The notes under the pieces were generated by a model. It saw only the letters and a program-made list of their open reading frames with translations, was not told the origin of the DNA and ran no database searches. Positions 8,530 through 63,626 of a stretch of 64,000 nucleotides of DNA are shown piece by piece. Source of the stretch: Candidatus Woesearchaeota archaeon (lineage in GTDB: Archaea > Nanobdellota > Nanobdellia > Woesearchaeales > ARS49); assembly GCA_003599055.1 (NCBI GenBank), contig QZIM01000006.1, positions 24,615 to 88,614 on the forward strand, read 5' to 3'. Both the position numbers and the translations under genes were made by a program. Numbering within the stretch: position 1 is the first letter of the stretch; each line of letters opens with the position of its first letter.

Positions 8530-9138
8530 CTATCGTACCCACACCGGATAGCTCATCTGCGGAATTGGCCGAGCGCAGCCGCCAAGGCGCGCGCCGATGA
8601 GCCGCACGGAAGAACCCGTATATTCCTCGCCTGCACGCACACAGCACTGGCTTGCCGTCTCGTACACGTCGCAATACCCCGTGAATGTTTGGGCAACACC
8701 CTGATAGAAGCCGGACGTGGAATGCTTCCATTCCTGAACGGAACAGCACGCGTCATAGCGCTGGCCGCGCGGCACCTGCGCAGGATATTCCACTTTTGGC
8801 CTGTCACGACTGCAATAGCCCTCCACCGCACCAACAAGGCGCACCGGATACTTTGAACGCATACCGCCATCACGCAAACAACAGGACTCCTTTAACTCAT
8901 TACCCGCACAGGCAACACTTCTCGTCGCAGTAACACCCTGGAACAGCCCGGTTGAGCCCGTGCGCCACTCCTGAGTACTGCAGCACGCAACATACGAGTC
9001 CGCAAACGCGTTCCCCGTTATATTGTTCGCCAATTTGGCCTGCCAGCCAAGGAAAAGAAGACCTCCAACTGACAAGATTGCAATCATCAGCACAACAACC
9101 GGCCGCACGTGGTGCGGCTGCTCTGCAAGTTCAGGCAT
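8530..9138 (-). CDS. Membrane-anchored secreted protein with two Cys-rich repeats
   Basis: N-terminal anchor VVVLMIAILSVGGLLFLGW. Two roughly 75-aa repeats share the pattern Y.ACCS.QEW..(G/S)..G(L/F).QGV...C...CC.R.G......VRL(V/I)GA..G.C. Confidence 0.6.
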   Translation of the reverse strand: MPELAEQPHHVRPVVVLMIAILSVGGLLFLGWQAKLANNITGNAFADSYVACCSTQEWRTGSTGLFQGVTATRSVACAGNELKESCCLRDGGMRSKYPVRLVGAVEGYCSRDRPKVEYPAQVPRGQRYDACCSVQEWKHSTSGFYQGVAQTFTGYCDVYETASQCCVRAGEEYTGSSVRLIGARLGGCARPIPQMSYPVWVR

Positions 9139-9568
9139 AAGAACTGCACAAGAGACCCTCTTTAAAAGGATTTATCACTACAGAACGTGAGTGACTGTTC
9201 TTCGACGAGAGAAAAGTCAAAAAACGCGTTCGTTTTGGGCACCAGAAAACAGAAGTCTCACTTTTCAGCACATCCAGATAAAATGAAAGCGAATACCGTT
9301 CTATGAACCCGTACACGCAAAAACACATAGTGCCTACATTTGACTGCTGCCGCCCATCAGCCCCCCACTCACAAGCACCACACAAACCACAGAACCCTCA
9401 CTTCTCCTGAAGCAAAAATGCAACAACTCCCCCCGTCCATCAAAAAAAAAACCGCGCCGCCCGTTTCTAAACAAAACCTGTTTGCACCACACGATGCTCA
9501 AGAAAACCGAGCACCACACCACTCCTCCCAAACACTCACAAAACGCACACGGAAAACCCACTGCAAAA

Positions 9569-9669
9569 TAGGCACCAGAAAATATCCAAGTGCGTCGCCA
9601 ATAACCCCGGAAAAACACCTCTGATTTAACGCTCACTTTTCACGAACAAAAATTAACCAAAAGTGAGAC
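9569..9669 (+). repeat. Three-block repeat, copy R1 (TAGGCACCAGAAAA / GGAAAAACACC / AAAAGTGAGAC)
   Basis: Block A lies at 9569-9582, block B at 9609-9619 and block C at 9659-9669. An inverted block C (CTCACTTTTC) lies at 9632-9641. A-to-C spacing is 89 nt, the same as copy R3. Confidence 0.7.
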
Positions 9670-9960
9670 CCAAAAAATAACTGCAAAAAATAGATTCTAA
9701 AGTGAATTTAAAAAAATAACTTATTTGAAAAATATTTTGAAACCTATCTTATTAAAAATAATTTTTATAAAAGAAATAAACAAAACTTGAGAAAAATAAA
9801 CCTTCAACAAAACTTAAAAAAATTTGAAAAATTCACGGAAAACCACTCAGAAACGACCCAGTAACGCATAAGTTCAACTGATAAAATCAGATAACACTGA
9901 CAGAAAAAATCCAAGAATTAAATTAAGTGAAAAAAGGAGAATTGACAAAAAAAAAGAAAC
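9640..9960. other. Extremely AT-rich non-coding core (candidate DNA-unwinding or plasmid-type origin region)
   Basis: A spot count of 9721-9780 gives 6 G+C in 60 nt, against about 60 % in flanking genes. There is no credible ORF. It sits inside a 1.45-kb non-coding stretch. Confidence 0.5.
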
Positions 9961-10593
9961 CGAATCTGCTCCCACACCGTCACTACCACGAATCTCCCTC
10001 ACTCATCACGCTACGCGCACGCTGCGGCCAAAAAGAGGCACGAACTCGCGCAAAAAGAGAGGAAAACACTGCCCAAAAAAAATCCCCGCAAATCGACTAA
10101 AAAAGAGGTTTACGAAGATGACAGGAAAAATACCCGAATTTGCGCACGTGTGCAAGAGTTGCAAATGTTTGGCGCGGCACCTTGGGTTTAGGCGCGAAAC
10201 CCCCTGACCTTCAATGTCGGAAAAATGGGCGAAAGTCGGATGAAATTCCGTCTCCGACGGAGAAACAGCAGAAAGTGCCGGTTTTGAAAAACCCACCGGC
10301 AGAACCAGATGGCAAAAAGTGTCGGAACTTTTGGCGAATTCTAAGCCAGTTCAGCGAAAAAACAACAGTTGAAATGCTGTGCAACTCATCTTTACCAAAA
10401 AAGTGCGCCAGAATTGATTTAATGAAGAATTCGGCGTTTTTTGCGCGTTAAAATTTTGCTGAAAAAAATTAAGATAATAATTTGCTGTCAAAGATGAAAA
10501 AATGTTGCGTCGGCAAGACTGCGACACTGGACAGGCGTTATCGGAAAACTTTTAACCGCCGGCGCGATTCACTGACTTCAAAAGGTGACCGTA

Positions 10594-11136
10594 ATGGAAT
10601 TCCTCCTCGAACACGCAGAACCCATCAGCTCAGACGTCCACGAACTCTCCAAAGTACTCCTTGCACGATTCGGCCTTTTGCCGCGCAAAAAAGACGGCTC
10701 GGCAAAAATGCACACCCTCCTCCTCGAACTCAACGAGAGAAAAAAACGCGCAAACCGCGACCGCCAACCCGAAACCGCCGTCATGCCCGTCGAAGAAATG
10801 GCCCTTCACGCCGGCATCAAGCGACAAACCATGTACGACTACCTGCACCGCTGGCTCTCGCTTGGCATTTTGAAAAAAACAAGCTTTGTCAGCTCAGGAA
10901 AAGTCATCGTCGGCTACGAGCTCAACGGGCCCACCCTCGACGGAGCATTCCGCAAGGCAGAAAACGCGCTCAAAAACCACCTCGACTACAGCTTCAAAGT
11001 CCTCGAACAGTTGCAAAACGAAATCAAAAAAGAAAAATTGAGAGAAATCAGCAGCGCATCCAGCACGTCAGCGGAGCATCAAGGCCAAGCACGTTCTTCT
11101 TCGCCTGAACCTCCCGAAACACCGCATCAACCCTGA
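10594..11136 (+). CDS. Winged-helix DNA-binding protein
   Basis: wHTH-like segment EEMALHAGIKRQTMYDYLHRWLSLGILKK..G.. with a low-complexity tail. ATG at 10594 (the track gives GTG 10585). The 3' end overlaps the convergent gene by 89 nt. Confidence 0.55.
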   Translation: MEFLLEHAEPISSDVHELSKVLLARFGLLPRKKDGSAKMHTLLLELNERKKRANRDRQPETAVMPVEEMALHAGIKRQTMYDYLHRWLSLGILKKTSFVSSGKVIVGYELNGPTLDGAFRKAENALKNHLDYSFKVLEQLQNEIKKEKLREISSASSTSAEHQGQARSSSPEPPETPHQP

Positions 11137-11590
11137 CAAAAACCGCATTCCCGTCGTGACGCTTCACCAGGGGAACACCCTTCTCAAGCATCGACCCGAT
11201 GGCCGCGCACACCTGCTCACGCGAGAGCAAGGATTTTCGCGCAACCTGCTCATACGACGCATACGGCTGGGTTTCCGTCAGACGATACAGAACGGAAAAC
11301 ACTTCCTTTTCCTTGCCCGAAAGCGGCTGCACGCAAAATTCCGGCTGCGCCTTTTGGCCCTTGACGAGCAACGTCAACTCGTCGAGCCGCTCGGCAAGCG
11401 CGTCCAGGCGACGGTTTACCGCGCCCAGCATCTCGTACGTTTGCGCCTGCTCCTGCGTATTCTCGTTAATTGCGAGCCGGTGGTCTTCAAGCTCACCCTG
11501 CACGCACTCGAGCACCTGCACGAGCTTGTGGCGTATCACGGACACATCACCCGATAGCAATAGCTGCTCTTGGTTCTGAATGCAAATCAC
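11048..11590 (-). CDS. Coiled-coil plus C-terminal winged-helix protein
   Basis: N-terminal heptad region (LEDHRLAINENTQEQAQTYEML..LDALAERLDELTLL). C-terminal wHTH-like segment KEVFSVLYRLTE..SYEQVARKSLLSREQVCAAIGSMLEKGV. GTG start. Confidence 0.55.
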   Translation of the reverse strand: MICIQNQEQLLLSGDVSVIRHKLVQVLECVQGELEDHRLAINENTQEQAQTYEMLGAVNRRLDALAERLDELTLLVKGQKAQPEFCVQPLSGKEKEVFSVLYRLTETQPYASYEQVARKSLLSREQVCAAIGSMLEKGVPLVKRHDGNAVFVRVDAVFREVQAKKNVLGLDAPLTCWMRC

Positions 11591-11772
11591 CCCGATTTAC
11601 AACGATGGAAAACAGGAGAGGGGCACTGGTTTAAATGGGTTTGGGTGTGGAAAAAAATAATGTCGGCGATTTTTTCGACGATAAAAAAGCGCACGCGGCG
11701 TCAGAAAAACGCGCCAAAAAACGGCAAGAAATGCGCCAAAAAATCGCGAAAAAAAATTCAAAAAAACAACGG

Positions 11773-12483
11773 TTATGCGTGCCTTTCGTGCTTCGCACTC
11801 GCCACATAAATCGTGTGCTTGCCATCGGAGACTACCTGCAGCAGATGTTCCCGCTCCATCTCTTCCAGAATGCGGTAAAAGCTCGACTTGCTGCACAGGC
11901 CCTGCTCCTCGACGATAATCTCGCGCATCTGGAGCGCGCCGATACGGCCGTATTTGTGCACAAGCGAGAGCGCCAAATTCTTGATGTACTCCTTGCTGTT
12001 TCGCGCAAGCTTGCGCGCAAGCTTTTCCTTGATTGCCGCACGGGACTCTTCCCTCGAAGAAACCGGCACTTCCTTTCGCTCACTTTCAGCGCTGGCGCTA
12101 GGATGCTTCTCGACTAAAGGGTGGCCGAGTACGTGCGCGCGCTGCTGGCTGCGCAGCTCCACCGCGTCGATTTTTTGCTCAATGTGCCGGATGCGCTGCA
12201 AAATCGGCTCCACATTGTAGTGCGCATCGACGAGCTGGCGAATCTCGCCCGCCGTCTTCGGCACGTGCTGGAGCGCAACACGCAACTCGTGCAACGAGAG
12301 CTTTTGCTCGTCAACAAGACGGCGCAGGACGCTGTTGTGCTCCTGCAACTGCTGATTTTGCTGGTGCAAATACGCAACCCACTGGTACAGCGCATCCGTG
12401 TCCTTCTTGACCTTTGAAAACGACTGCGAAACGGACTCATCCATTTCCTGAATTTGCTTCCCGTACCCAAATAAGTCGAACAT
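11773..12483 (-). CDS. Coiled-coil plus C-terminal winged-helix protein (same architecture as 11048..11590)
   Basis: Start moved to MFDLFGYG (12483), which lies 27 nt downstream of a TATA box. Long heptad region, then the wHTH-like LVHKYGRIGALQMREIIVEEQGLCSKSSFYRILEEMEREHLL. Confidence 0.6.
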   Translation of the reverse strand: MFDLFGYGKQIQEMDESVSQSFSKVKKDTDALYQWVAYLHQQNQQLQEHNSVLRRLVDEQKLSLHELRVALQHVPKTAGEIRQLVDAHYNVEPILQRIRHIEQKIDAVELRSQQRAHVLGHPLVEKHPSASAESERKEVPVSSREESRAAIKEKLARKLARNSKEYIKNLALSLVHKYGRIGALQMREIIVEEQGLCSKSSFYRILEEMEREHLLQVVSDGKHTIYVASAKHERHA

Positions 12484-12505
12484 ACCCCGAGGAAACGCGC
12501 AGTCC

Positions 12506-12519
12506 TTTAAATATTTTTT
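12506..12519 (-). promoter_or_regulatory. TATA box for the wHTH gene 11773..12483
   Basis: The minus strand reads AAAAAATATTTAAA, centred about 27 nt upstream of the ATG at 12483. The first iteron starts 5 nt further upstream. Confidence 0.6.
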
Positions 12520-12523
12520 GCCA

Positions 12524-12850
12524 GACCGTCCCAGGACCGTCTCAGGACAGTCTCTGGGACCGGACCGTCCCACGACGTTAATCGCCTTAAACGGAGAAAA
12601 AATACGCACGAAACAGTCTCAAGACCGTCCCAATAAGACCAATAGTCCCGAAAAAAGACCATCCCAAAGATAGTCCCAGAGACAGTCCCAAGCCAATTTA
12701 TCGACGATAAACTGAATTGAGACCAATTTGGGACTGTCCGAACCAGTCTTAAGACCGTCCTGCGACTGTTTTGCGACATTCCCAGGACCGTCCCACGCAA
12801 AATTATCGACGATAAACCATTGGGACCGAGACAATCCTGAGACTATCGCA
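12524..12850. repeat. Iteron-like array of GAC(C/A)GTC(C/T)CA decamers plus a duplicated palindrome-containing unit
   Basis: Copies start at 12524, 12535, 12546, 12563, 12612, 12623, 12657, 12669, 12681, 12753 and 12786. An inverted copy lies at 12729-12738 and degenerate copies at 12830 and 12841. TTATCGACGATAAAC occurs at 12698-12712 and 12803-12817. Confidence 0.85.
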
Positions 12851-13198
12851 AGACTTCCGGCGAAAAAAAGAGCCCGACCCAAAGGAGCAACCTCAAAAAA
12901 AGTTCGCACAAAAAGACTAGTCAAATAAAAAACCCCCCCCCCCGCCAAAAAAAACACCAAGAAGACCCAAAAGAAGCCCAAGAACGGCCATTGGCAAAAG
13001 CAGCAAACGCAAGGCACAAATTCCCAACTGGTGCCTAAAAAGAGCCGGAAAAAAGGCAGCACCCTGCAACCCCCGCAACCTGCAAAGCCAACCAGTGAAC
13101 ACGAATAAACGACCCACCAGGCTCAAAACACCAAAAACCAACTTTATTCGTAAAAAGTGAGAGTTCATTTGAGCAAAAAAAGAGCCACCGCGACCATT

Positions 13199-13302
13199 TT
13201 AGGCACCTGAAAAACGGAAAGCATAAAAGCACTTGCCCCCTTATGCACTTTATGACAACCAAAGGGGACGAAAAACACCACATTTGTTCAGAAAAAGTGA
13301 GA
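13199..13302 (+). repeat. Three-block repeat, copy R2 (degenerate copy of the rsmE 5' region)
   Basis: TTAGGCACCTGAAAA at 13199-13213, GAAAAACACC at 13270-13279 and GAAAAAGTGAGA at 13291-13302. A-to-C spacing is 92 nt. Confidence 0.65.
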
Positions 13303-13995
13303 ACTCGCTTGTACCGCCCAGAGGCAGAATCAGGAAGAACCATTGCGCTCACGAACGAACAAATTAGGCACCTGAAAGTACTTCGCACTGAAAAACACCA
13401 CCACGTCCACGTGTTTGACGGCAAAGGACACGAATACTGCGCCACGCCTTCGGAAAAAGTGAGAGACGCAATTGAAGTTGGGCACTATGTGAAAACTGCA
13501 ACTGAGCCCCCCATTACAATCACACTTGCAACCGCGGCACCCAAGGGAAACAGAATGGACACGCTCGTTGAAAAAGTGAGTGAACTTGGCGTGAAAAAAC
13601 TAGTGCCTATTATTTTTGCGCGAAGCGTGGTCGAGCCGGGCGCGAGCAAAATCGAGCGCCTCCAACGCATTGCCATCGAAGCCTGCGCACAAAGCAACAG
13701 AACCATTGTTCCGGAAATCACCGCCCCAACAGCATTTACCGCCTTACTCGAAAAAGTGAGAGAAGCCAAAACCGCCCTTGTTTGCCATAAGAGCGGACAA
13801 GCACTTGATAAAATAGCCATTACAAACACAAGCGACGTACTTGTCATCATCGGCCCCGAAGGAGACTTCACCCCTGAAGAACTCGCCAACCTTGAAAAAG
13901 CAGGCTGCAAAAAAGTGCGGCTTGCCCCATCAACCTTACGCGTGGAAACCGCCGCAATCACCGCACTCGCCCAGCTCGCAAGCAAACATTTATAA
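13243..13995 (+). CDS. rsmE: 16S rRNA (uracil-N3)-methyltransferase, RsmE family
   Basis: ITLATAAPKGNRMDTLVEKVSELGV, ERLQRIAIEACAQSNR, VIIGPEGDFTPEE and LRVETAAI match RsmE/DUF558. The family-typical N-terminus begins near the in-frame GTG at 13297 (VRTRLYRP), so the true start may be 13297. Confidence 0.8.
   Translation: MHFMTTKGDEKHHICSEKVRTRLYRPEAESGRTIALTNEQIRHLKVLRTEKHHHVHVFDGKGHEYCATPSEKVRDAIEVGHYVKTATEPPITITLATAAPKGNRMDTLVEKVSELGVKKLVPIIFARSVVEPGASKIERLQRIAIEACAQSNRTIVPEITAPTAFTALLEKVREAKTALVCHKSGQALDKIAITNTSDVLVIIGPEGDFTPEELANLEKAGCKKVRLAPSTLRVETAAITALAQLASKHL
13365..13464 (+). repeat. Three-block repeat, copy R3 (inside the rsmE coding sequence)
   Basis: TAGGCACCTGAAA at 13365-13377, GAAAAACACC at 13390-13399 and GAAAAAGTGAGA at 13453-13464. 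A-to-C spacing is 89 nt. Confidence 0.65.
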
Positions 13996-14018
13996 ACCCC
14001 CTGAATCGGAAGCCGCCT

Positions 14019-14291
14019 ATGGACATCCACATCATCGAGGAAAAAAAGAACAAAATCGTCTTCGAACTCAAAGGCGAAGGCCACACGCTCAGCAACGCAG
14101 TCCGCAAAGAACTCTCCAATGACGAACACGTCAAAGGAGCAGCATACACGATTGAACACCCCCTTATCGAAGTTCCCCGCTTTATCGTCGAAACAGACGG
14201 CGCAGAACCGCGCAAAGTCCTTGCAGCCGCAGCAAAACGCGTTGCCAAAGACGCCGAAAAAATTAAATCCGAAGCAAAAGAACTCAAGTAA
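14019..14291 (+). CDS. rpoL: DNA-directed RNA polymerase subunit L (Rpo11)
   Basis: FELKGEGHTLSNAVRKEL...V..AAY.IEHPL is the RpoL/RBP11 signature. Length is 90 aa. TATA ATTTATAAAC lies 27 nt upstream. Confidence 0.85.
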   Translation: MDIHIIEEKKNKIVFELKGEGHTLSNAVRKELSNDEHVKGAAYTIEHPLIEVPRFIVETDGAEPRKVLAAAAKRVAKDAEKIKSEAKELK

Positions 14292-14558
14292 ATGGCTTCT
14301 TCCCTTGACGGAATCGTCAGCGACATCCAAACAAAACGCGAATCAGGGGCGCGCATTGACTATATCACCATTGCACTCTCGCGAACCAGCATCGATGAAC
14401 CACCCCGCGACATCACCGTCAAAATACCCCACGATGAAAACCCCTTTCTTTTTGGCGACTACCTCCGCATCACAAGCGAAAAACCACTCTCTCTTCTTCG
14501 CGTAACTCCCGAAGGCAAAACCCTCGAACACTACCATTCAGACCGCGACGTTGCGTAA
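14292..14558 (+). CDS. Hypothetical protein
   Basis: 88-aa ORF starting immediately after the rpoL stop. No motif recognised. Confidence 0.45.
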   Translation: MASSLDGIVSDIQTKRESGARIDYITIALSRTSIDEPPRDITVKIPHDENPFLFGDYLRITSEKPLSLLRVTPEGKTLEHYHSDRDVA

Positions 14559-14597
14559 AACAGAATCCTTAAAAGGCAGAACCATAGTGCCTATGCT

Positions 14598-15098
14598 ATG
14601 TTCGTCCGCGTCAAAAACATCAAAGGCAAGCAGTATGCGTACTTGGTCGAAAACGAATGGACCCCGTGGGGCTCACGACAACGCGTCACCAAATACCTCG
14701 GCAAAACACAACCGCTCACCCGTTATACTGACACGGACACCCAACTCCCGCGCGGATACCAAGAAAGCGTCCGCGCACTCATCATCCAAGAACTCAAAAA
14801 CCACGGCTTTTTGCACGAAGGAGACCTGCTGAAGAACGACGCGATTTGCGTCCACCTCACCAACAAGACCGTCCGCGCGGGAACAAAAAACATCACCCTG
14901 CAACTCAACGAAGGGTTCCTTTGCGACCACACCCTCGGACAGCTCCTTCACTTTGCGCCAACAGACCGCCCCGACACCACTGCCAAAAAACTCGCAAGCC
15001 ACGCCCTTGAAGCAGGCCTCAAACTTCGCGAAGAACACTTCGTCCACCTCTTCGAACAGGCAAAAACTATTAAAAAAGAGCCGAGCGGAGGCAGCTGA
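14598..15098 (+). CDS. Hypothetical protein
   Basis: 166-aa ORF with a plausible globular composition. The stop overlaps the uppS start. Confidence 0.5.
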   Translation: MFVRVKNIKGKQYAYLVENEWTPWGSRQRVTKYLGKTQPLTRYTDTDTQLPRGYQESVRALIIQELKNHGFLHEGDLLKNDAICVHLTNKTVRAGTKNITLQLNEGFLCDHTLGQLLHFAPTDRPDTTAKKLASHALEAGLKLREEHFVHLFEQAKTIKKEPSGGS

Positions 15099-15796
15099 TG
15101 CGCGTCCCAAAACACATCGGCATCATCTTAGACGGCAACCGCCGCTTTGCCAAACGCCTTATGCTCAAACCCTGGAAAGGCCACGAATGGGGCGCGGACA
15201 AATTCAAAAAATTCGTCACCTGGTGCGAAGAGCTCGGCATTGAAGAAATTACCGCGTACTGTTTTTCTATTCAGAACTTCAACCGCCCAAAAGAAGAATT
15301 CGACTACATTATGAATGTCTTCACCAAAGAGCTTGAAGACCTCACCACCCCGCAAAAACTCGCAGAATTACGCGAACACGGAATCCAATACCGCATTATC
15401 GGACGACTGCATCTTCTGTCGCCGCACCTACAGGAACTGTGCAAAAAATTAACGGATTCCACCAAAAACAACAGCCCGCGCCGCATCAACCTCGCATTTG
15501 CCTACGGCGGCCGCGAAGAAATCATTGACGCGGTGCAAAAAATTGCCGATGAAGCGCGCGCAGGCAAAATTGAACACATCACCGAAGACACCATCAAAGA
15601 ACACCTGTGGCTCCAATCAGAACCCGACCTGATAATCCGAACCGGCGGAGAACAGCGCACCTCCAACTTTCTCCCCTGGCAAAGCACGTACAGCGAACTT
15701 ATCTTCATTGAAAAATTCTGGCCGGAATTTGAGAAAGAAGACTTGGTTGCGTGCGTAAACGAGTACGGAGAACGAGAACGACGGTTTGGGAAGTAA
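15098..15796 (+). CDS. uppS: Undecaprenyl (cis-prenyl) diphosphate synthase
   Basis: HIGIILDGNRRFAK, AYCFSIQNFNRP, AFAYGGREEI and IRTGGEQRTSNFLPWQ are UppS family motifs. Confidence 0.9.
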   Translation: MRVPKHIGIILDGNRRFAKRLMLKPWKGHEWGADKFKKFVTWCEELGIEEITAYCFSIQNFNRPKEEFDYIMNVFTKELEDLTTPQKLAELREHGIQYRIIGRLHLLSPHLQELCKKLTDSTKNNSPRRINLAFAYGGREEIIDAVQKIADEARAGKIEHITEDTIKEHLWLQSEPDLIIRTGGEQRTSNFLPWQSTYSELIFIEKFWPEFEKEDLVACVNEYGERERRFGK

Positions 15797-32956: not shown

Positions 32957-34114
32957 TTATTTGTTTTGTTCATTGTTTAACGCTGCGCCCTGATCCCCAT
33001 CAAGAAATATTATGAATTCTTTGAGGAGTTGAAGACAAAACTCTGCCTCAGATTTACTAGTCTCCTGAGTTAGCCTCTGAAAATTGTGTTTCATAAAATC
33101 TTCTGGTTCTATTGATAGCTTCTCGCTTATTGACTTATTGAGACGTGTGCGATCCATGTGCGAATATGTGTTTCTTATCTCACCAAACAAATTCAGCCGT
33201 TTCGAGAAATCAGGAACTTTAGACCCTATCAAATCAATAATTCCTATTTTTTTAACTATGCTTTGTAAAGCATTCAACTCCAGTCGATCCACAATCAATC
33301 CTACTTCATTATACAATGTTTCGTCTTCAATCTGGTGACAAACTCTATTTTGAATTGATCTTTTCAATAAATGTTCCATACACGCTGCCGAGCATATGAT
33401 TGATGCAACGTAGTTTCCCAGGATGAATGACGTGTGAGCTTCATTGTATAGATAAACACCCAATTCATAGTATTCAGAGTAAAGCAATTCAGGAAACGGG
33501 ATCTTGTCCAAGTTGCTAATGAAAGCAGGCGCACTCTTCTCAAAAAAGCTCTTCAATGACAATTCGGATGCCTTTTCCTTAGAATAACTATTTAGAATAT
33601 TGACATATAGCGGCGGTAGAGGTTGGACGTGACTTTCGGCGAGTGTTGAAAAAATCATCTCATTGAAGATTGCTTCGTTATTGAGTAGCTTTCTCACAAA
33701 CTCATCTACTGCATTTTTAATCGCTAAATCGGATTTACCGCTGACTATGATTCGCAAATGATTGAATTTGTCTTTGAATGCTAAAACGAATCCATCTCGT
33801 ATTTTGAGTTCCTTGTCAAAACCATGTTCTTTTATTGCTTTCAAAACCCACTTATTCGTTTGACTGTCACCAACACAAATCAAGTCAGAGTTGTAATAAT
33901 CTTCATCGGTCAATTCCGAGGCTAATTTTGCAGAATTTATTGACAACACTTGCTTTGAATGTGAATACAAAAGAGTCTGCACTGTTTGAATAAGTGCAAC
34001 TGCAAAGACAACCATGATTCCTTTGTCATTATCTCCCACCGTGATAATTAAGGGGTTCTTGGAGGACTTAAGGAAATCGGCGACTTTCTCTTGACCCTGT
34101 TCAGATGTCATCAC
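32957..34114 (-). CDS. HEPN-domain protein with an N-terminal alpha/beta domain of unknown function
   Basis: The C-terminal half has AACMEHLLKRSI ... LFGEIRNTYSHM, which contains the canonical HEPN R-N-x3-H motif. The N-terminal half has three strand-Gly motifs (LIITVGDN, LICVGDS, RIIVSGKS). No signal peptide. Confidence 0.6.
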   Translation of the reverse strand: MMTSEQGQEKVADFLKSSKNPLIITVGDNDKGIMVVFAVALIQTVQTLLYSHSKQVLSINSAKLASELTDEDYYNSDLICVGDSQTNKWVLKAIKEHGFDKELKIRDGFVLAFKDKFNHLRIIVSGKSDLAIKNAVDEFVRKLLNNEAIFNEMIFSTLAESHVQPLPPLYVNILNSYSKEKASELSLKSFFEKSAPAFISNLDKIPFPELLYSEYYELGVYLYNEAHTSFILGNYVASIICSAACMEHLLKRSIQNRVCHQIEDETLYNEVGLIVDRLELNALQSIVKKIGIIDLIGSKVPDFSKRLNLFGEIRNTYSHMDRTRLNKSISEKLSIEPEDFMKHNFQRLTQETSKSEAEFCLQLLKEFIIFLDGDQGAALNNEQNK

Positions 34115-34124
34115 GGCCTCGCAA

Positions 34125-34319
34125 TTATCTAATGACTCTTTTTGCCACGCTTACGATTCCCAAGAACCCGAGCACGATCCCAATGAAAACACCTGCAAAG
34201 ACCGCCAAATTTCCCGCGCCGGGTGAAATGCCAGTTGCTTGCAAGATGATGCCTGCAACCACAAGAGTGCCTACGATGCCTGTCGCACCTAAACCAAGAC
34301 CGAAGATTTTTTGTGCCAT
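34125..34319 (-). CDS. Gly-rich 2-TM small membrane peptide
   Basis: 64 aa with two Gly/Ile/Val-rich helices containing GxxxG-like spacing. It sits 1 nt after the upstream stop and 10 nt before the downstream start. Confidence 0.55.
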   Translation of the reverse strand: MAQKIFGLGLGATGIVGTLVVAGIILQATGISPGAGNLAVFAGVFIGIVLGFLGIVSVAKRVIR

Positions 34320-34320
34320 T

Positions 34321-34602
34321 TTATCGGCCTTTGTTCCAGTATCCTTTGCGCCTCAATCTTGTGTTTATTGATCCATCGCCGTTTGACATAGTGACAACAC
34401 TTCGACCATAGCTTTTTCCTACCACTTGCACGTTGACGTAACCGTTTGAGCGGCTTGTCATTCCTGCAGCAGTTCTTGTTGCCTTAGAGCCTCCAAACTG
34501 GTGTTTTTCAGGGGCGCGTACATTCGCCAGCCGGAAGGGGGTTCCATCCGTAAAATAGCCCGAGTCACCATCATGCCAGTGATCAATTCGTTTTCGTTTC
34601 AT
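34321..34602 (-). CDS. Minimal SNase/thermonuclease-like protein (93 aa)
   Basis: HDGDSGYF...FRLANVRAPE...KSYGRSVV...G.INTRLRRKGY is co-linear with staphylococcal nuclease DGDT..FRL..VDTPE..DKYGR....G..VN..LVR.G. The Asp of D-T-P-E is replaced by Arg. Start at 34602 with GGAGGT 8 nt upstream. Confidence 0.6.
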   Translation of the reverse strand: MKRKRIDHWHDGDSGYFTDGTPFRLANVRAPEKHQFGGSKATRTAAGMTSRSNGYVNVQVVGKSYGRSVVTMSNGDGSINTRLRRKGYWNKGR

Positions 34603-34813
34603 TTTATTAACCTCCAAGGGTTCAATACTTTCCCGCAGGCTGTGAAGTATAAAAAGGTTATGAATTAAGCCATAATGAAAATCAACAATGTGACTTAAAA
34701 CGTTACTTATTTGACAAACATTGTACAACTATTTACGGTTTAGTCCACAATGAACAGAAACGCTTATAAATTAAACCTTCAAACTACTCAAAAGTGGGGG
34801 TAAAAGTTTAAGA

Positions 34814-35884
34814 ATGGGAATGAACACTTCTAAGGTTATGGGTGATACAACCCGTAAAAAGAGGGCTGATATCTTCAAAGACATAGTTGATAGCTTACGA
34901 AACGGCAGTCAAACAATACTTCAGATATCTAAAGCAACTGACATTAATTGGGAAACTGTAAAAAATTGTCTTGAAACGCTCAAAACGCTCAGTATCATTC
35001 AAGAAGAAGAAAAAAACGGAAAAACATTCTACTTCGTAGATGAAAGTAAGCTTATTCAAACTGAAGAGAACACTCTTTTGGGCTTGCCATTAACCGAAGA
35101 TCGAAAAAATGCAACATATGGTCTGTTCAAACGAATAATCGAACGATGGGAAAAGATACGCCCTGACCGAAAAATCAACAAGACATTTTTACATAAGATT
35201 CTGGTCAAGGTCGTCAAGAATAATGACAAGGATCTGAAATTCCCACATGGTTGGTATCTCTTTGGCGAGTGCGCAGTATTACAATGTGATCCAATGGACT
35301 GCAAAGAACAACCTTATCAAATTGGAACCGAATATGATGCAAAAATAGATGTGGTCGTAACTGAGTATTCTCAATTATCTTCAACACACGAGTTAATGCA
35401 AAGACAATATACTGACGAAGGGAATGAACTGTACACGTTGAGACTAAAAATCAGCGATAAACTTCTCAATAAATTCACCGAGACTTCAGTTCATGAACTC
35501 AAAAGAAGCCTCAAAGATTTTGTTTTCAGTTTCAAAAAAAATGAAGAAAACGAAGAACTCCTTGAATATTTGAATGGATTCCTTTCAATAGTTACTCGTC
35601 TTATCAATGGTCTTAAACTTGGAGAACTTGACGACATCAGACCAGTCATCAATGAAACGTTTATGTCAATTTGGGAGCTTCTTGCGACTTACAATCTTTA
35701 CAAATCTCTTGTCGAGCGCGGATACTACGAAAAGGCAACTATACGAAAATACTATACTCTACGCATGGGCAATTTGAAACACATTGCAGAAAGTTATCTA
35801 TCTGCACTACACGACTATTGCCCACCGTTACTAATCCCTCAAGAAGACCCACTGCGCAAGCTTATAACTCCTCAGGCATCCTGA
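34814..35884 (+). CDS. N-terminal winged-helix protein with a large uncharacterised C-terminal domain
   Basis: The wHTH-like segment is IFKDIVDSLRNGSQTILQISKATDINWETVKNCLETLKTLSII. The remaining roughly 280 aa have no recognised motif. The gene is divergent from the HEPN operon. Confidence 0.6.
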   Translation: MGMNTSKVMGDTTRKKRADIFKDIVDSLRNGSQTILQISKATDINWETVKNCLETLKTLSIIQEEEKNGKTFYFVDESKLIQTEENTLLGLPLTEDRKNATYGLFKRIIERWEKIRPDRKINKTFLHKILVKVVKNNDKDLKFPHGWYLFGECAVLQCDPMDCKEQPYQIGTEYDAKIDVVVTEYSQLSSTHELMQRQYTDEGNELYTLRLKISDKLLNKFTETSVHELKRSLKDFVFSFKKNEENEELLEYLNGFLSIVTRLINGLKLGELDDIRPVINETFMSIWELLATYNLYKSLVERGYYEKATIRKYYTLRMGNLKHIAESYLSALHDYCPPLLIPQEDPLRKLITPQAS

Positions 35885-36269
35885 TCTCAATAAGATTTCT
35901 GAACTCAGCAAAATCCTGAATGTTCCGCGTAACTATGCAAATTGCATTACCCTTTTTCGCCAAAACCACGTGCAAAGCATCAGGAAAGTTGTTATTTGAT
36001 AGTTCCCGAGCTTGTTTTTCATCGCCATCTGCTCTCAGAATGGTAATCACCTGCTCTTTTTTCAAATCACTAACTAACCTGTTAATCTCCTCTTCAGAAC
36101 GATACTTCTTGAACTCCTCAATAACCCAATCAGAAATAACCAACGAATACTCACCTTCTCTAATTTTACGAAAGACATTAAGCGCGAACTCACCTAAATC
36201 CCGGAAACGGTCTTTGCGACCTTCAAATAAGTCAATGTAGACATTAGTGTCTACGTAAATTTTATCCAT
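35862..36269 (-). CDS. PIN-domain (VapC-like) nuclease
   Basis: MDKIYVDTNVYIDL, ..ISDWVIEE.., DALHVVLA.. and CIVTRNIQDF supply the PIN acidic residues. No adjacent antitoxin ORF. Confidence 0.7.
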   Translation of the reverse strand: MDKIYVDTNVYIDLFEGRKDRFRDLGEFALNVFRKIREGEYSLVISDWVIEEFKKYRSEEEINRLVSDLKKEQVITILRADGDEKQARELSNNNFPDALHVVLAKKGNAICIVTRNIQDFAEFRNLIEIRMPEEL

Positions 36270-36356
36270 TGCCCGACTTATTCAGGAGGAATATAAAAAC
36301 ACTACTCCGGTTCACTATCAATAATTTTATAAGCAGCGTTCCTAAACTAAATCATA

Positions 36357-39062
36357 GTGAAAGAGCGCGCAAAAGAAAGGATTTCGCAGTTAGTCGCTAA
36401 ATATGAGCGTCTGAAAGCTGAAGGTAGATTGAAGTCCTATAATGAAGAGATGACGAAAAAGGACTTCATCCTTCCGTTATTCGAAGCGCTTGGATGGGAC
36501 GTTTATAATACGAATGTAGATGAAGTGTCTGCCGAAGAAAAAGTTTCCAAAGGACGCGTTGACTATGGATTTAGAATCGCGGGAATCCCCAAGTTCTTCC
36601 TTGAAGCAAAAGCCCTTAAAGCTGACCTTGAGGACCTAAAATGGGCTGAACAAGCAATCAATTACTCTTGGCACAAGGGCGTCGTTTGGGCAGTCCTTAC
36701 TGACTTTGAAACAGTTCGTGTATTCAATGCAGAAGTCAAAACTGCCAATCCTGCGCAAAGCCAATTCTTTGCTCTGTACACAAATCAATTTCTCGATAGA
36801 TTTGAGCAGTTATGGTTGTTATCCCACGAAAGTTTTGAAAAAGGCTTAATCAATGAAGAAGCAGAGAAATGGGGTAAAAAACTGAAGAAAATCCCTGTTG
36901 ATAAACAACTCCTTTCAGACTTCACTTCATTCAGGGAGTTGCTTTCTAAGAGCGTTTTAAAGAACAACCCACAGAAAAAACTCACTGAAGAAGATATCGA
37001 CGAGTCAGTGCAGAGGATACTTGACAGACTCATTTTCATTAGAACGACTGAGGACAAAGAGATTGAACCCCCGCACTTAATGCCTCTTCTGAGAGAAGAT
37101 ACTGGCAAAAGAGTTCTCAAGAAGTTAAACGTGCTTTTCAGATACTATGATGAAATCTATAACAGTAAATTGTTCCAGCCACACCTATGCGAAGACCTTG
37201 AGATTGATGATCACGTCCTAGAACACATAATTCAAGGTTTGTATTGTTCAAAAGAGTGGAGCATACACTACAACTTCGCCTTATTGGATGCTGACATTTT
37301 AGGAAGCATTTATGAGCAGTATTTGGGACACATTCTAAAGAAAACAGAAAAACGAGCTACGCTTACTGAAGGAAAAATACACAGAAAAGAACAAGGAATA
37401 TACTATACGCCCACATATATTGTTGATTACATCGTCAAGAACACCATTGGTGAATTGGCAAAAGACAAAAAGTTTGATATGGACAAGATAAAGATTCTCG
37501 ATCCTGCTTGCGGTTCAGGTTCATTCTTAATTAAAGCTTTTGACTTCCTCAATCAACATCATAGCAGAAAAGGAACTGGAGAACAGACAAAGATTGACAC
37601 AAGCGGAGTTGCCGCAACTTTTACTAAAAAACTCGAACTTCTCAAAAATAACATTTACGGCGTTGACTTGGACCCAAAAGCTGTTGAAATCGCGCAACTC
37701 AACCTCCTTCTAAAAGCAGCTGAGAAAAAGCATAGACTGCCAACACTCCAAAACAACATCAAATGCGGCAATTCATTAATAGACGACCCAAATATTGCAG
37801 GACAAAGGGCCTTCAAATGGGAGGATGAGTTCAGCACAATAATGAAAGACGGCGGATTTGATGTCGTGATTGGAAATCCGCCTTATGGCGCATCATTCAA
37901 TACTCAGGAAAAAGAATACTTCAATTCAAGATACACTTATGTAAAATCTGTTTATGAAAGTTACCGTTTATTCATAGAACTAGCTTCAAAATTAGTAAAG
38001 GATAGAGGATATATGGGGCTAATTGTCCCAAACACGTGGTTTTATTTAACAAATGCTGAAAACATGAGAAAGGAAATTTTGTCAAATTATTCAGTAACTA
38101 AATTGATTAATCTTCCACAAAGCGTTTTTGAGGATGCGACAGTCGATACTTGCATAATAATATTCAGAAAGGAACCTCCAAAAAATAATCAAGTTGAAAC
38201 TCACTTTTTTAATTATAAAGATAAAATTAACAGCCTTGAATGTATGAAATATTCTGAATTAAAGCAAAACGACTTTCTAAAAAATGCTGAATGCATAATT
38301 AATATCAATCGCAATGCAGAAGATGTTAAACTAATTTCAAAAATTAAAAAGCAACCTCAAGTTTTAGATGAGTATGTTACAATAATAACTGGGATAAAAC
38401 CATATCAAGTCGGAAAAGGTGTGCCTCCTCAAACAAAAAAGGATTTAGAGGAGAAAAACTTCACTGCAACTTATCAAAAAGATAAATCATTTAAACCTTG
38501 GTTAACTGGGAAATTTATCTCCAGATACCAAGTTTTACCAAATAAAGAATTCATAAAATATGGTGCTTGGCTTGCAGAACCAAAAATACCTGATATTTTT
38601 GAAAAGGATAGGATAGTTTTACAACAAATACGGAATCCCTCATTGCCCCGTCGTATTATTGCCACTTTTATTAAAGGGGGAATATATACTAATAATGGAA
38701 TTCATAATCTAATCCCGAAAAATGACGAGCAGACTTTTTGGATTCTTGGAATATTGAACTCTAAATTGATGAATTATTACTTTGCATCACATTACAATGA
38801 TGTAAATATCAAACCATCTAATTTATACAGTTTACCTTATCCTGTTTATGATAACAAATCAAAACTATCAGAACTCGTATCAAAAATTGTTTTTATCGGT
38901 CAAAAACTCACACAATTAGAAGGTAAACAAACCGATGAACAGGTTCAATTAGAAAAAGAATTCAAAAAATTGGATAAGGAAATCGATGAAAAAGTTTATG
39001 AAATATATGGCTTGAATGAATCTGAGCGAAAAGTAATAGAAGACCACCTCAAAAGTAACTGA
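36357..39062 (+). CDS. Type IIG restriction-modification fusion enzyme (PD-(D/E)xK nuclease + N6-adenine methyltransferase + specificity region)
   Basis: The N-terminus has HsdR_N-like FILPLFEALGWDV...GRVDYGF...FFLEAKA (D...ExK). Methyltransferase motif I is ILDPACGSGSFLI and motif IV is VIGNPPYG. 901 aa with a GTG start. Confidence 0.8.
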   Translation: MKERAKERISQLVAKYERLKAEGRLKSYNEEMTKKDFILPLFEALGWDVYNTNVDEVSAEEKVSKGRVDYGFRIAGIPKFFLEAKALKADLEDLKWAEQAINYSWHKGVVWAVLTDFETVRVFNAEVKTANPAQSQFFALYTNQFLDRFEQLWLLSHESFEKGLINEEAEKWGKKLKKIPVDKQLLSDFTSFRELLSKSVLKNNPQKKLTEEDIDESVQRILDRLIFIRTTEDKEIEPPHLMPLLREDTGKRVLKKLNVLFRYYDEIYNSKLFQPHLCEDLEIDDHVLEHIIQGLYCSKEWSIHYNFALLDADILGSIYEQYLGHILKKTEKRATLTEGKIHRKEQGIYYTPTYIVDYIVKNTIGELAKDKKFDMDKIKILDPACGSGSFLIKAFDFLNQHHSRKGTGEQTKIDTSGVAATFTKKLELLKNNIYGVDLDPKAVEIAQLNLLLKAAEKKHRLPTLQNNIKCGNSLIDDPNIAGQRAFKWEDEFSTIMKDGGFDVVIGNPPYGASFNTQEKEYFNSRYTYVKSVYESYRLFIELASKLVKDRGYMGLIVPNTWFYLTNAENMRKEILSNYSVTKLINLPQSVFEDATVDTCIIIFRKEPPKNNQVETHFFNYKDKINSLECMKYSELKQNDFLKNAECIININRNAEDVKLISKIKKQPQVLDEYVTIITGIKPYQVGKGVPPQTKKDLEEKNFTATYQKDKSFKPWLTGKFISRYQVLPNKEFIKYGAWLAEPKIPDIFEKDRIVLQQIRNPSLPRRIIATFIKGGIYTNNGIHNLIPKNDEQTFWILGILNSKLMNYYFASHYNDVNIKPSNLYSLPYPVYDNKSKLSELVSKIVFIGQKLTQLEGKQTDEQVQLEKEFKKLDKEIDEKVYEIYGLNESERKVIEDHLKSN

Positions 39063-39296
39063 TTTTTGGCAAAATAAACCAGTTGTCGATTTTTTAGCTC
39101 TGTCTGGGGACTGCTTTTCATCGTTGATACATTTCATCAAGCAGTTTGTTGTTGCATTATACTGTTTTGCCAGCTTATCCTTGAACTGGGTGCTCAAGCC
39201 AAGAAACTCCAAGATTTTCTGGTCTTTGAAAACTGAGTGCAACTCTCTCAAAACTATTCTGGTTCCCTTACCAGACGATAAATGACGGGATTTTCA

Positions 39297-39368
39297 AGCC
39301 TCCGGAGGGATTTGAACCCCCGACCTACTGCTTACGAAGCAGTCGCTCTGCCGCTGAGCTACGGAGGC
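39297..39368 (-). tRNA. tRNA-Thr (anticodon CGU)
   Basis: Folded by hand as GCCUCCG/CGGAGGC acceptor, GCUC/GAGC D stem, ACUGC-UUCGUAA-GCAGU anticodon arm and GGGGG-UUCAAAU-CCCUC T arm. No encoded CCA. Confidence 0.9.
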
Positions 39369-39455
39369 GGCACGGTTGGTAGCGACGATGGACCATTTAA
39401 AAAGGTTGTGGGAAGGATTCACAAAACATAAAAAGGCAAAAGGAACAAAAAGACT

Positions 39456-63579: not shown

Positions 63580-63626
63580 AAGAAAAAAAAAGAAGCACAC
63601 CAGTACTTAAGGTTTTGGCGCGCACA

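Follow-up and report, generated by a model that had tools for sequence, protein, structure and literature searches.

The locus considered here raises the question of what the short repeated DNA words on either side of a gene-poor, AT-rich segment are for. The segment lies in a 64,000-nucleotide stretch of DNA from a Candidatus Woesearchaeota archaeon, which we call the window, and we studied it from the gene of a Cys-rich membrane protein (8530-9138, minus strand) to rsmE. It carries a cassette of three genes for predicted winged helix-turn-helix (wHTH) proteins, named wHTH1, wHTH2 and wHTH3, between two noncoding arms; cassette and arms together are called the module. An earlier note on this DNA had described three copies (R1, R2 and R3) of a repeat composed of blocks A, B and C, of which R3 lies inside rsmE. 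It had read them either as att-like scars of an insertion or as spaced binding sites for a local wHTH protein. Our analysis indicates that the locus is an undescribed system of cis-elements that is conserved, together with its protein cassette, across the sampled Woesearchaeota lineages. Judged from sequence comparison, A and C are distinct cis-acting DNA motifs on which purifying selection acts.

The window encodes archaeal RpoL, UppS, ribosomal proteins L1 and L10, PAC2, RtcB and the CCA-adding enzyme, and its closest public relatives are metagenome-assembled genomes of Woesearchaeota. A search with RsmE alone gave three archaeal loci (L001-L003, 51-52% identical), and a metagenome search with wHTH1, which is biased towards presence of the module, gave 20 more. 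Look-ups of the exact proteins added L035, whose wHTH1 is 84% identical, and L036, a strain about 96% identical in DNA. Chance expectation was calculated from third-order Markov simulations of the window. Conserved words were obtained by a census of non-AT-rich 8-mers in the two noncoding arms of non-redundant loci (11 left and 12 right arms), while locus specificity and polarity were counted in 14 loci with a total of 215 kb. Position weight matrices (PWMs) for A and C, with a maximum of 30.5 for C, were built solely from noncoding sites of other genomes. Phylogenetic footprints were taken from pairwise alignment of the window arms with L035, and codons were shuffled synonymously within each of ten rsmE genes in 2000 trials.

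A word search of the window showed that the blocks had all been placed correctly. Block A, T[AG]GGCACC[AT]GAAA, occurs at 9236, 9569, 13200 and 13365. Block B, GAAAAACACC, occurs at 9610, 13270 and 13390, with an extra unrelated copy at 34500 on the minus strand, and block C, AAAAGTGAGA, at 9256 (minus strand), 9659, 13293 and 13455. The inverted A at 13028-13038 is present, and the distances from the AGG of A to C are 89, 92 and 89 nt. Except for the B copy at 34500, the copies of the block words all lie within 9.2-13.8 kb. Against the Markov expectation of 0.12 for the core of A, 0.24 for the 10-mer of C and 0.85 for B, 4, 6 and 4 copies were observed, respectively; that is, the A core and the C 10-mer exceed expectation 25- to 33-fold.

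The blocks A and C proved to be real signals, whereas B and the repeat unit did not. Block B carries a C-to-G change (in B2) in the nearly identical strain L036; in L035, B2 reads GAAAATAGCG and B3 is absent. In the three supposed units B follows A by 41, 70 and 25 nt. The distance from A to C outside coding sequence ranges from 31 to 288 nt among relatives, and the in-gene A-C unit alone is fixed (91 nt), by codons. Since B and the spacing both fail conservation, we consider that there is no three-block unit but two independent motif families; because the A-to-C distance varies in relatives, we regard the 89/92/89 match as partly fixed by the rsmE codons of R3 and otherwise coincidental. The list of three copies was also incomplete. 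Further C copies lie at 13153, 13570, 13752 and 9632 (minus strand), with a degenerate one at 9392 (minus strand), and further A-type sites at 9330 (minus strand), 13477, 13603 (minus strand) and 14583 (minus strand). Altogether, at least nine C and at least nine A sites, in both orientations, are spread over 9234-9672 (about 440 bp) to the left of the cassette and over 13027-13765 (740 bp) to its right.

The consensus of A is TTAGGCAC(C/T)A(T/G), with a quasi-palindromic form ATAGTGCCTAT. The core of C is AAAAGTGAG and its full form TTTATTCGT-AAAAGTGAG-(A/G)GTT, given also with an AGTTC ending; the conservation of C spans positions -14 to +8, counted from the G of its GTG. When the noncoding DNA of the window was compared with that of L035, it was unalignable save for exact islands at A, at C and at a few other elements, and the PWMs, although made from other genomes, single out almost exclusively sites of the module in the window.

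The census gave the same picture across the relatives. The C word AAAGTGAG occurs in 11/11 left and 9/12 right arms, and a minus-strand C equivalent to the one at 9252-9275 is present in every left arm (11/11). The A word TTAGGCAC was found in 10/11 left and 9/12 right arms, its inverted variant AGTGCCTA in 10/11 and 3/12, and TGTCGGGA in 10/11 and 1/12. Other words belong to the right side: TTATCGAC occurs in 2/11 left and 11/12 right arms, and words of the iterons, the short repeats beside wHTH3 (e.g. GGGACTAT), in 0/11 and 12/12. As for locus specificity, 94 of the 98 copies of AAAGTGAG in the 14 loci fall within the arms or the first 500 bp of the downstream gene. The word TAGGCAC occurs 63 times in the arms (45 kb) and 18 times in the other 170 kb, the latter being the chance level; A is thus about eleven-fold enriched in the arms, without orientation preference.

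The orientation of C follows a clear rule. In the left arms 30 copies are on the minus strand and 10 on the plus strand. In the right arms, upstream of the gene, the numbers are 0 and 21, and in the first 500 bp of the downstream gene 0 and 33. The plus copies of the left arm pair with the innermost minus copy, and this inverted pair either adjoins the AT-rich stretch (the window, L001, L002 and L035) or encloses it (L016, L022, L024 and L028). That is, C is polar and mirror-arranged across the cassette, and the motifs are locus-specific and deeply conserved.

The cassette keeps company with the arrays in every locus. The order PAC2, noncoding DNA, wHTH1, wHTH2, wHTH3, iterons, noncoding DNA, rsmE and rpoL was found in at least 14 Woesearchaeota loci, and in the loci long enough to show it, gene order and orientation stay unchanged even where RsmE identity falls to 34%. 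In L001-L003 the full order is PAC2, Cys-rich gene, noncoding DNA, wHTH1 (plus), wHTH2 (minus), wHTH3 (minus), iterons, noncoding DNA, rsmE, rpoL, a gene for a 166-aa protein and uppS. The sole exception is L025, a short and divergent locus outside this set, in which wHTH1 is inverted. In nearer relatives the wHTH proteins are 54-72% identical, compared with 51% for RsmE and 74% for PAC2 and RpoL. The module evolves at chromosomal rates, like the flanking housekeeping genes, and is vertically inherited.

The motifs inside rsmE are of special value, because there the nucleotide sequence can be judged against the protein it encodes. The product is a two-domain RsmE, with the N-terminal PUA-like domain (PF20260 PUA_4, 24.6 bits) and the SPOUT Methyltrans_RNA domain (PF04452 at 6.3e-47; 159.7 bits vs a cutoff of 23.9). 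Its start is most likely the GTG at 13297, inside block C of R2, since in L001 and L002 a TAA stop stands directly before AAA-GTG. The peptide from this start, VRTRLY..., is similar to the MRxxRxY... with which RsmE proteins presumably begin in general.

Within the gene, the motifs are kept at differing codons and in differing frames. In the codon alignment, C is spelled AAA-GTG-AGN at some positions but CAA-AGT-GAG at one, and A is spelled ATT-AGG-CAC in one clade and, at a different position in L022 and L024, TTA-GGC-ACT. At 13445-13468 the codons AAA GTG AGN persist although the third residue may be R or S. The A2 site at 13599-13611 (the A site at +310) is shifted by about 9 nt and flipped in L035, and the L021/L029 and L022/L024 lineages carry C at codons other than those used in the clade of the window. 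The converse also occurs: L016 spells RHLK with CGG CAT TTG, so that the peptide is kept and the A motif is lost. In the synonymous shuffles of the ten rsmE genes, 21 plus-strand C were observed vs a mean of 3.4 and a maximum of 11, and 20 A vs a mean of 3.0 and a maximum of 8; minus-strand C in the gene numbered 0. The excess is about six-fold, a pooled figure that overstates independence because the ten genes are related, although most single genomes are individually significant. From the differing codons and frames together with this excess, we conclude that selection acts at the nucleotide level and that codon choice in rsmE is bent to keep the motifs.

Furthermore, the motifs are not bound to rsmE. 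In L020 (7016-7642), L028 (8755-9399), L027 and L032, all of more distant lineages, an MTS-family class I methyltransferase gene (PF05175) follows the right arm in the place of rsmE, and the plus-strand C array is present in all four. In L028 the last C copy overlaps the GTG start of this gene, and in L020 the array runs into it. The right C array continues for about 450 bp into whichever gene lies downstream. Since the array persists beside the MTS-family gene, the motifs belong to the module and not to rsmE, and the suggestion that the blocks had been copied from rsmE does not hold. A separate idea, that C mimics the rRNA substrate of RsmE around U1498, was rejected; the similarity is too weak, and the motif persists without rsmE. 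The features of the window are collected in Table 1.

Table 1. Positions of the sites and genes of the module in the window (pLDDT, predicted local distance difference test).
Feature	Position	Strand	Evidence or remark
Motif A, variant TTTGGGCACCAGAAA	9234-9248	+	PWM 10.3; composite with the inverted C at 9252-9275, composite kept in L035
Motif C, outermost of left arm; core AAAGTGAG at 9257-9264	9252-9275	-	PWM 15.1
Motif A2 CATAGTGCCTACA, quasi-palindromic ATAG-N3-CTAT	9326-9338	-	PWM 15.4; footprint island vs L035
Degenerate motif C GAGAAGTGAGGGTTC	9392-9415	-	PWM 13.7; CTCACTT conserved vs L035
Motif A (block A of R1)	9567-9581	+	AAATAGGCACCAGAAAAT identical in L035
Block B of R1 GAAAAACACC, unconserved	9610-9619	+	partly kept in L035, absent from L001-L003
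Inverted C pair CTCACTTTTcACGAACAAA-N-AAAAGTGAG	9627-9650 (C minus), 9649-9672 (C plus)		left edge of AT-rich stretch
AT-rich stretch	9670-9960		GC 0.41 for the 9-10 kb bin; locally at least 75% A+T
Conserved noncoding D region	10120-10420	+	10-locus alignment, 65% mean column identity
Conserved block upstream of wHTH1, CGACACTGGACAGGCGTTATCGGAAAA..TTAA	10521-10556	+	27 nt identical in L035, recognisable in L002
wHTH1: predicted Lrs14/MarR-like winged helix and long C-terminal helix (45 residues)	10594-11136	+	AlphaFold2 (AF2) pLDDT 84.8
wHTH2: N-terminal coiled coil and putative C-terminal winged helix	11048-11590	-	domain call from sequence pattern
wHTH3: predicted coiled coil of about 120 aa, disordered linker, C-terminal winged helix	11773-12486	-	AF2 pLDDT 85.1
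Iteron field: GACCGTCCCAGGAC, GGGACTGTCC and similar, about 10 copies in both orientations	12520-12850		abuts wHTH3 start
Palindromes TTATCGACGATAAA	12699, 12804; third copy 11673		embedded in iteron field, except the third copy, between wHTH2 and wHTH3
Motif A, inverted, best A match in window	13027-13039	-	PWM 19.6; AACTGGTGCCTAAAA isolated conserved island vs L035
Motif C, site C0 TTTATTCGTAAAAAGTGAGAGTTC, best C in window, missed in the earlier note	13143-13166	+	PWM 30.4/30.5; island vs L035
Motif A (block A of R2)	13198-13212	+	word search, L035 footprint, PWM
Small inverted repeat GCATAAAAG...CTTATGC	13221-13246		between motif A and rsmE start; stem kept in L035
Block B of R2, A-rich box 18-27 nt upstream of rsmE GTG	13270-13279	+	word search
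Motif C containing rsmE GTG start (13297)	13283-13306	+	PWM, codon alignment
rsmE (16S rRNA m3U methyltransferase family)	13297-13995	+	first ~460 bp carry A and C sites
Motif A in rsmE, I-R-H-L-K (block A of R3)	13363-13377	+	word search, codon alignment
Block B of R3 in rsmE, unconserved	13390-13399	+	word search, codon alignment
Motif C in rsmE, E-K-V-R (block C of R3)	13445-13468	+	word search, PWM
In-gene pair: C (plus) 13562-13585, E-K-V-S-E (13570 copy GAAAAAGTGAGT), and A2 (minus) 13599-13611, L-V-P-I	13562-13611		PWM
Motif C in rsmE, E-K-V-R-E	13742-13765	+	word search, PWM
Outlying A2 CATAGTGCCTATG	14583-14595	-	PWM 15.3; three bases before the 166-aa gene (14598-15098)

Of the three proteins of the cassette, wHTH1 and wHTH3 have few relatives outside this lineage. 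The structure model of wHTH1 suggests a kinship with archaeal Lrs14-family and MarR-type proteins, its best Foldseek matches being 1sfx and AbfR2 (6cmv), and it has 339 homologues, almost all named Woesearchaeota, without a Pfam domain. For wHTH3, Foldseek gave generic wHTH matches only (ArsR, MarR, PadR, AspA and TubR, with E-values of 0.002 to 0.04), and at least 300 homologues, almost all labelled Woesearchaeota, were found, again without a Pfam domain. A family search with the three proteins gave nothing significant in Pfam, NCBIfam, PHROGs or a PDB sequence search. The layouts of wHTH2 and wHTH3 look similar by sequence, but profile comparison detected no paralogy between them. The genes wHTH1 and wHTH2 are convergent and their 3' ends overlap by 89 nt (11048-11136); the overlap is 26-35 nt in L001-L003.

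Between the AT-rich stretch and wHTH1 lies the D region, in which a distance of exactly 105 bp separates two TGTCGG(G/A)A sites (10215 and 10320) and an inverted CAAGG...CCTTG element also occurs. When its alignment from 10 loci was folded with RNAalifold, no consensus RNA structure emerged (-0.94 kcal/mol, no covarying pair), and we therefore dropped the idea that it is a noncoding RNA; it is probably another set of protein-binding sites. The block at 10521-10556 is a probable promoter and operator, and block B of R2 is possibly a weak TATA-like element. A scan for bacterial-type promoters and terminators gave the background level. Rfam, applied to the whole window at gathering thresholds and to 9.0-13.5 kb at permissive E-values, gave four tRNAs elsewhere and one chance microRNA match. 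In the left arm of some relatives, lineage-specific genes are inserted without disturbing the motif order: a 164-aa open reading frame (ORF) in L002 (6716-7210), a periplasmic-binding-like gene and a TrmB regulator in L016 (2816-4712), and a gene of 299-332 aa without a Pfam match in L028 (4802-5701) and L031 (4805-5803).

On the right side, the word families of the iterons and palindromes are kept in 11-12 of 12 relatives. A run of 11 C (AAAAAACCCCCCCCCCCGCC, 12925-12950) is deleted with its flanks in L036, and we regard it as a strain-variable tract. Beyond rsmE, the 166-aa gene at 14598-15098 is itself conserved, and the isolated, strong A2 at 14583 suggests that the family of A sites may reach beyond rsmE and rpoL.

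What, then, are the arrays? The explanation that we favour, and that holds about half of our confidence, is that they would be sites on double-stranded DNA to which the wHTH/coiled-coil proteins of the cassette itself bind, for the sake of regulation or of chromosome organisation. The behaviour of A is that of a double-stranded DNA site, since it occurs in both orientations and has a quasi-palindromic form, and we infer more generally that the motifs act as DNA rather than RNA. The local wHTH proteins would be the binders: one or two of them may bind the A and C sites, and a third may bind the iterons beside wHTH3. The coiled coils could then assemble a large, possibly looped, nucleoprotein complex over the locus that encodes it. 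The role of such a complex would be one of two. It may regulate the cassette together with the divergent transcription units on its flanks (rsmE-rpoL-...-ribosomal protein genes), or it may be a fixed, centromere-like site that organises the chromosome. The second suggestion of the earlier note, that the blocks are spaced binding sites for a local wHTH protein, is consistent with all of these results.

Several points weigh against this explanation. Any pairing of a particular protein with a particular motif would be conjecture. The polarity of C is expected also of a promoter or RNA-level signal on outward transcripts, and C sites have, 23-26 nt ahead of their GTG, a weak A/T-rich signal such as tandem promoters would show. 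An AT-rich stretch enclosed by polar repeats in inverted orientation, with iterons in addition, is reminiscent of a replication origin. In addition, no gene for a partition ATPase or effector was seen in the module when ParA, ParM and TubZ-like proteins were sought, so that a centromere here would have no visible motor; the repeats and the DNA-binding proteins of a par locus are present, and its NTPase motor is absent from the module.

A bolder form of the proposal, which we put forward tentatively and regard as doubtful, is that the locus is an undescribed chromosome-organising centre, centromere-like or resembling an auxiliary origin, common to the sampled Woesearchaeota. Such a centre would consist of the mirror-polar C arrays, the A sites, the iterons and the AT-rich core, and would be run by the three lineage-specific coiled-coil/winged-helix proteins, which lack relatives in the described families. 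Some of its cis-elements would then have come to share their nucleotides with the codons of the adjacent rRNA methyltransferase gene.

The main rival of binding by the cassette proteins is that C works at the level of promoters or of RNA. That is, C would be a tandem promoter or initiator element, or a site for an RNA-binding regulator (AAAGUGAG), on outward transcripts; the copy at the start codon would control translation of the methyltransferase, and the left arm would encode a decoy RNA. This would explain well why C is strictly sense in the right arm and the gene (54 plus to 0 minus). It would also explain why one C spans the GTG with which the downstream gene, be it for RsmE or for an MTS-family protein, begins in the window, in most of the relatives bearing rsmE and in L028; the exceptions are L022 and L024, which have AAAATGAGA, and L020, which starts at an ATG without C. 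Moreover, the weak A/T-rich signal (-26 to -23), with an A at -34, stands in the register of the archaeal TATA box and TFB recognition element (BRE) relative to the GTG. The left arm speaks against this rival. In L028 and L031 its minus-strand C copies face the 3' end of a convergent gene, without any co-oriented gene, and those of the window precede the TATA box that belongs to the Cys-rich gene and are thus outside its mRNA. The A motif, which occurs in both orientations within one arm and has one quasi-palindromic form, is typical of double-stranded DNA sites, the neighbouring D region has no conserved RNA structure, and the arms have no Rfam match. Taken comprehensively, we consider this rival unlikely.

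Less can be said for a chromosomal replication origin, whether primary, secondary or dormant, which we consider improbable. Here C would be a polar initiator site similar to an origin recognition box (ORB), placed around an AT-rich unwinding element, and the iterons with wHTH3 would be a replicator-initiator pair of plasmid type captured long ago. The layout is indeed suggestive. An AT-rich stretch lies directly to the right of the innermost minus-strand C in 10/11 of the left arms mapped (the window, with C at 9627 and the stretch up to 9960, and nine relatives; L018 has none), giving the order of minus-strand C, AT-rich DNA and plus-strand C that an archaeal origin would have. A second AT-rich stretch stands between the iterons and the plus-strand C array in several relatives, and the iterons abut the start of wHTH3 in 12/12 loci. 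The gathering of several motif classes also recalls Sulfolobus oriC1, in which polar ORBs are inverted around the DNA unwinding element (DUE) and an extra motif, ucm, is bound by a nucleoid protein (PMC12141716).

The strand composition and the gene content speak against an origin. At third codon positions, the plus-strand genes of the window have a GC skew (GC3) of -0.54 and an AT skew (AT3) of +0.42, and the minus-strand genes, read on their coding strand, +0.40 and -0.41, respectively. The genomic plus strand is therefore rich in C and A whatever the gene orientation (GC3 about -0.4 to -0.5, AT3 about +0.4). The sign is identical to the left of, inside and to the right of the module, with no change anywhere in the 64 kb, and the same holds in L001-L003, L016 and L018, where AT3 reaches +0.9 (L001). 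The third-position skew is the informative measure here, whereas bulk GC skew on the scale of the window is uninformative, being near zero in the relatives. An asymmetry of this size at third positions is very strong in our experience, and to our knowledge replication is the only ordinary cause of an asymmetry that is independent of gene orientation. If replication is what drives it, the constant sign implies that forks cross the locus in one direction and that the locus is neither an active origin nor a terminus, whereas a dormant origin would be compatible with it.

In addition, no Orc1/Cdc6-like gene was found in the 64 kb of the window or within 10 kb of the module in any locus, as far as each extends; the only AAA+ gene of the window is RFC-like (62395-63600). 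None of wHTH1-3 gave a significant match to a replication-initiator family, and the iterons, present as in an iteron plasmid replicon, stand beside a wHTH3 that matches no Rep family and no plasmid record in PLSDB. The C motif bears no convincing likeness to the presumed consensus of the ORB core, TCCAGTGGAAA. We found no publication in which these motifs are mentioned or a Woesearchaeota origin is described. Orc1/Cdc6 is encoded in 206 of 208 complete Nanobdellota genomes, Woesearchaeales included, and the preprint that reports this only rotates the genomes to orc1 (bioRxiv 10.64898/2026.05.13.725050).

The first reading of the earlier note, in which an element of about 3.8 kb integrated into the rsmE 5' region and left R1 and R3 behind as att-like direct repeats, has very little probability left, and so has its variant in which the arrays are multi-site transposon ends like those of Tn7 or Mu. 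It is true that direct copies of A and C flank the cassette, that mirror-oriented, multi-copy C resembles transposon ends, and that the extended C consensus AAAAGTGAGAGTTCG equals the start region of rsmE in several relatives. Against this stands the fixed position, order and orientation of a cassette that diverges like its housekeeping neighbours. The relatives share the arrangement, with no conserved spacing, and no empty site was seen among the loci long enough to show one, including the three obtained through RsmE alone, the searches with wHTH1 being biased towards presence. The arrays are present also where the downstream gene is not rsmE. Instead of a single pair of boundary direct repeats there are multi-copy arrays in both orientations, with the outlying A at 14583. 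No integrase, recombinase, transposase or Rep domain was found in the ORFs of 9.1-13.3 kb (Pfam, NCBIfam, PHROGs), no viral relatives of wHTH1 or wHTH3 in IMG/VR and no plasmid relatives of wHTH3 in PLSDB, and the codon-position composition of the cassette genes matches the strand bias of the host. Finally, the low-depth assembled contigs of four subsurface DNA metagenomes show the module contiguous, with no excision joint at 9.6 or 13.3-13.4 kb, where the att reading predicts one. The module is not a recent insertion.

One low-depth contig (run X1) links 9768 to 15259 with 15 extra letters. We treated it as spurious, because one of its ends lies in the AT-rich, low-complexity stretch and it is off the predicted att positions. 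Elsewhere in the window, a low-GC island at 33000-39400 (GC 0.30-0.43 vs about 0.51) ends at a tRNA-Thr gene (39297-39368) and encodes a 901-aa type IIG restriction-modification enzyme similar to Eco57I/MmeI (36357-39062). This island was probably acquired horizontally and is a better candidate for an integrated element than the wHTH module.

The view that the repeats are functionless, whether as decayed copies, tandem or dispersed, of the 5' end of rsmE or as the product of mere chance and low complexity, can scarcely be believed: R2 in the rsmE frame does loosely resemble R3 (RHLK...EKHH...SEKVR) and the region is A-rich, but exact islands of 8-13 nt survive deep divergence in DNA that otherwise cannot be aligned, the register of B differs between R2 and R3 (70 vs 25 nt after A), L035 has a stop codon between the equivalent of A2 and rsmE, and both the excess over the Markov expectation and the synonymous shuffles contradict it.

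The conservation of these sites is of interest for several reasons. The Woesearchaeota, like other DPANN archaea, are uncultured, and their gene regulation, chromosome organisation, replication and segregation are almost unstudied. The locus offers a handle on them, namely three uncharacterised, predicted DNA-binding proteins in hundreds of Woesearchaeota assemblies and conserved DNA sites that make up four families or more and keep to a single locus. These are protein-DNA pairs that can be tested. It is also a case in which sites of this kind constrain synonymous codon choice in a housekeeping gene, and a caution that repeats around a gene-poor, AT-rich segment are not necessarily the scars of an insertion.

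The locus can be compared with four kinds of known system. The ends of Tn7 and Mu carry multiple subterminal transposase sites, and the present arrays resemble them in having several copies of a polar site per end, with the two ends in mirror orientation. Here, in contrast, there is no transposase, the position is fixed throughout the lineage, and one "end" lies inside an intact housekeeping gene.

Autoregulated archaeal wHTH regulators of the Lrs14, MarR or TrmB type have operators around the promoters of their own genes. The likeness is that wHTH1 is predicted to fold like Lrs14-family AbfR2 and MarR proteins, and that conserved sites lie in the promoter regions of the cassette genes and of the divergent neighbours. 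The present locus differs from them in its extent, with two motif families, iterons and TGTCGG sites over about 2.7 kb of noncoding DNA and a neighbouring gene. It differs also in that C is polar and not palindromic, and in that there is one locus and no dispersed regulon, as far as the 215 kb show.

An archaeal origin of the oriC1 type, with its ORBs and DUE and, in Sulfolobus, the ucm motif bound by UBP, is similar in that inverted polar repeats bracket an AT-rich stretch, several motif classes occur in one intergenic region, and the chromosomal position is conserved. The present locus is unlike it in having no adjacent orc1/cdc6, no skew switch and a motif unrelated to the ORB (as far as the presumed consensus shows), in enclosing three wHTH genes, and in sending its arrays hundreds of bp into a gene.

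The remaining comparison is with centromere or anchoring arrays that have a cognate protein, such as box A and box B of P1 parS, R1 parC with ParR, tubC with TubR, the arrays of pNOB8 AspA, and the ram sites of Bacillus subtilis RacA. The module lacks an NTPase of the ParA, TubZ or ParM type, and mirror polarity like that of C is not general among these arrays. The likeness lies in the clustered repeats, of two kinds in one case, beside the gene of a small wHTH/coiled-coil protein; AspA and TubR are among the matches of wHTH3, generic as these are. Moreover, parS sites, like the A and C sites of rsmE, can be part of a coding sequence.

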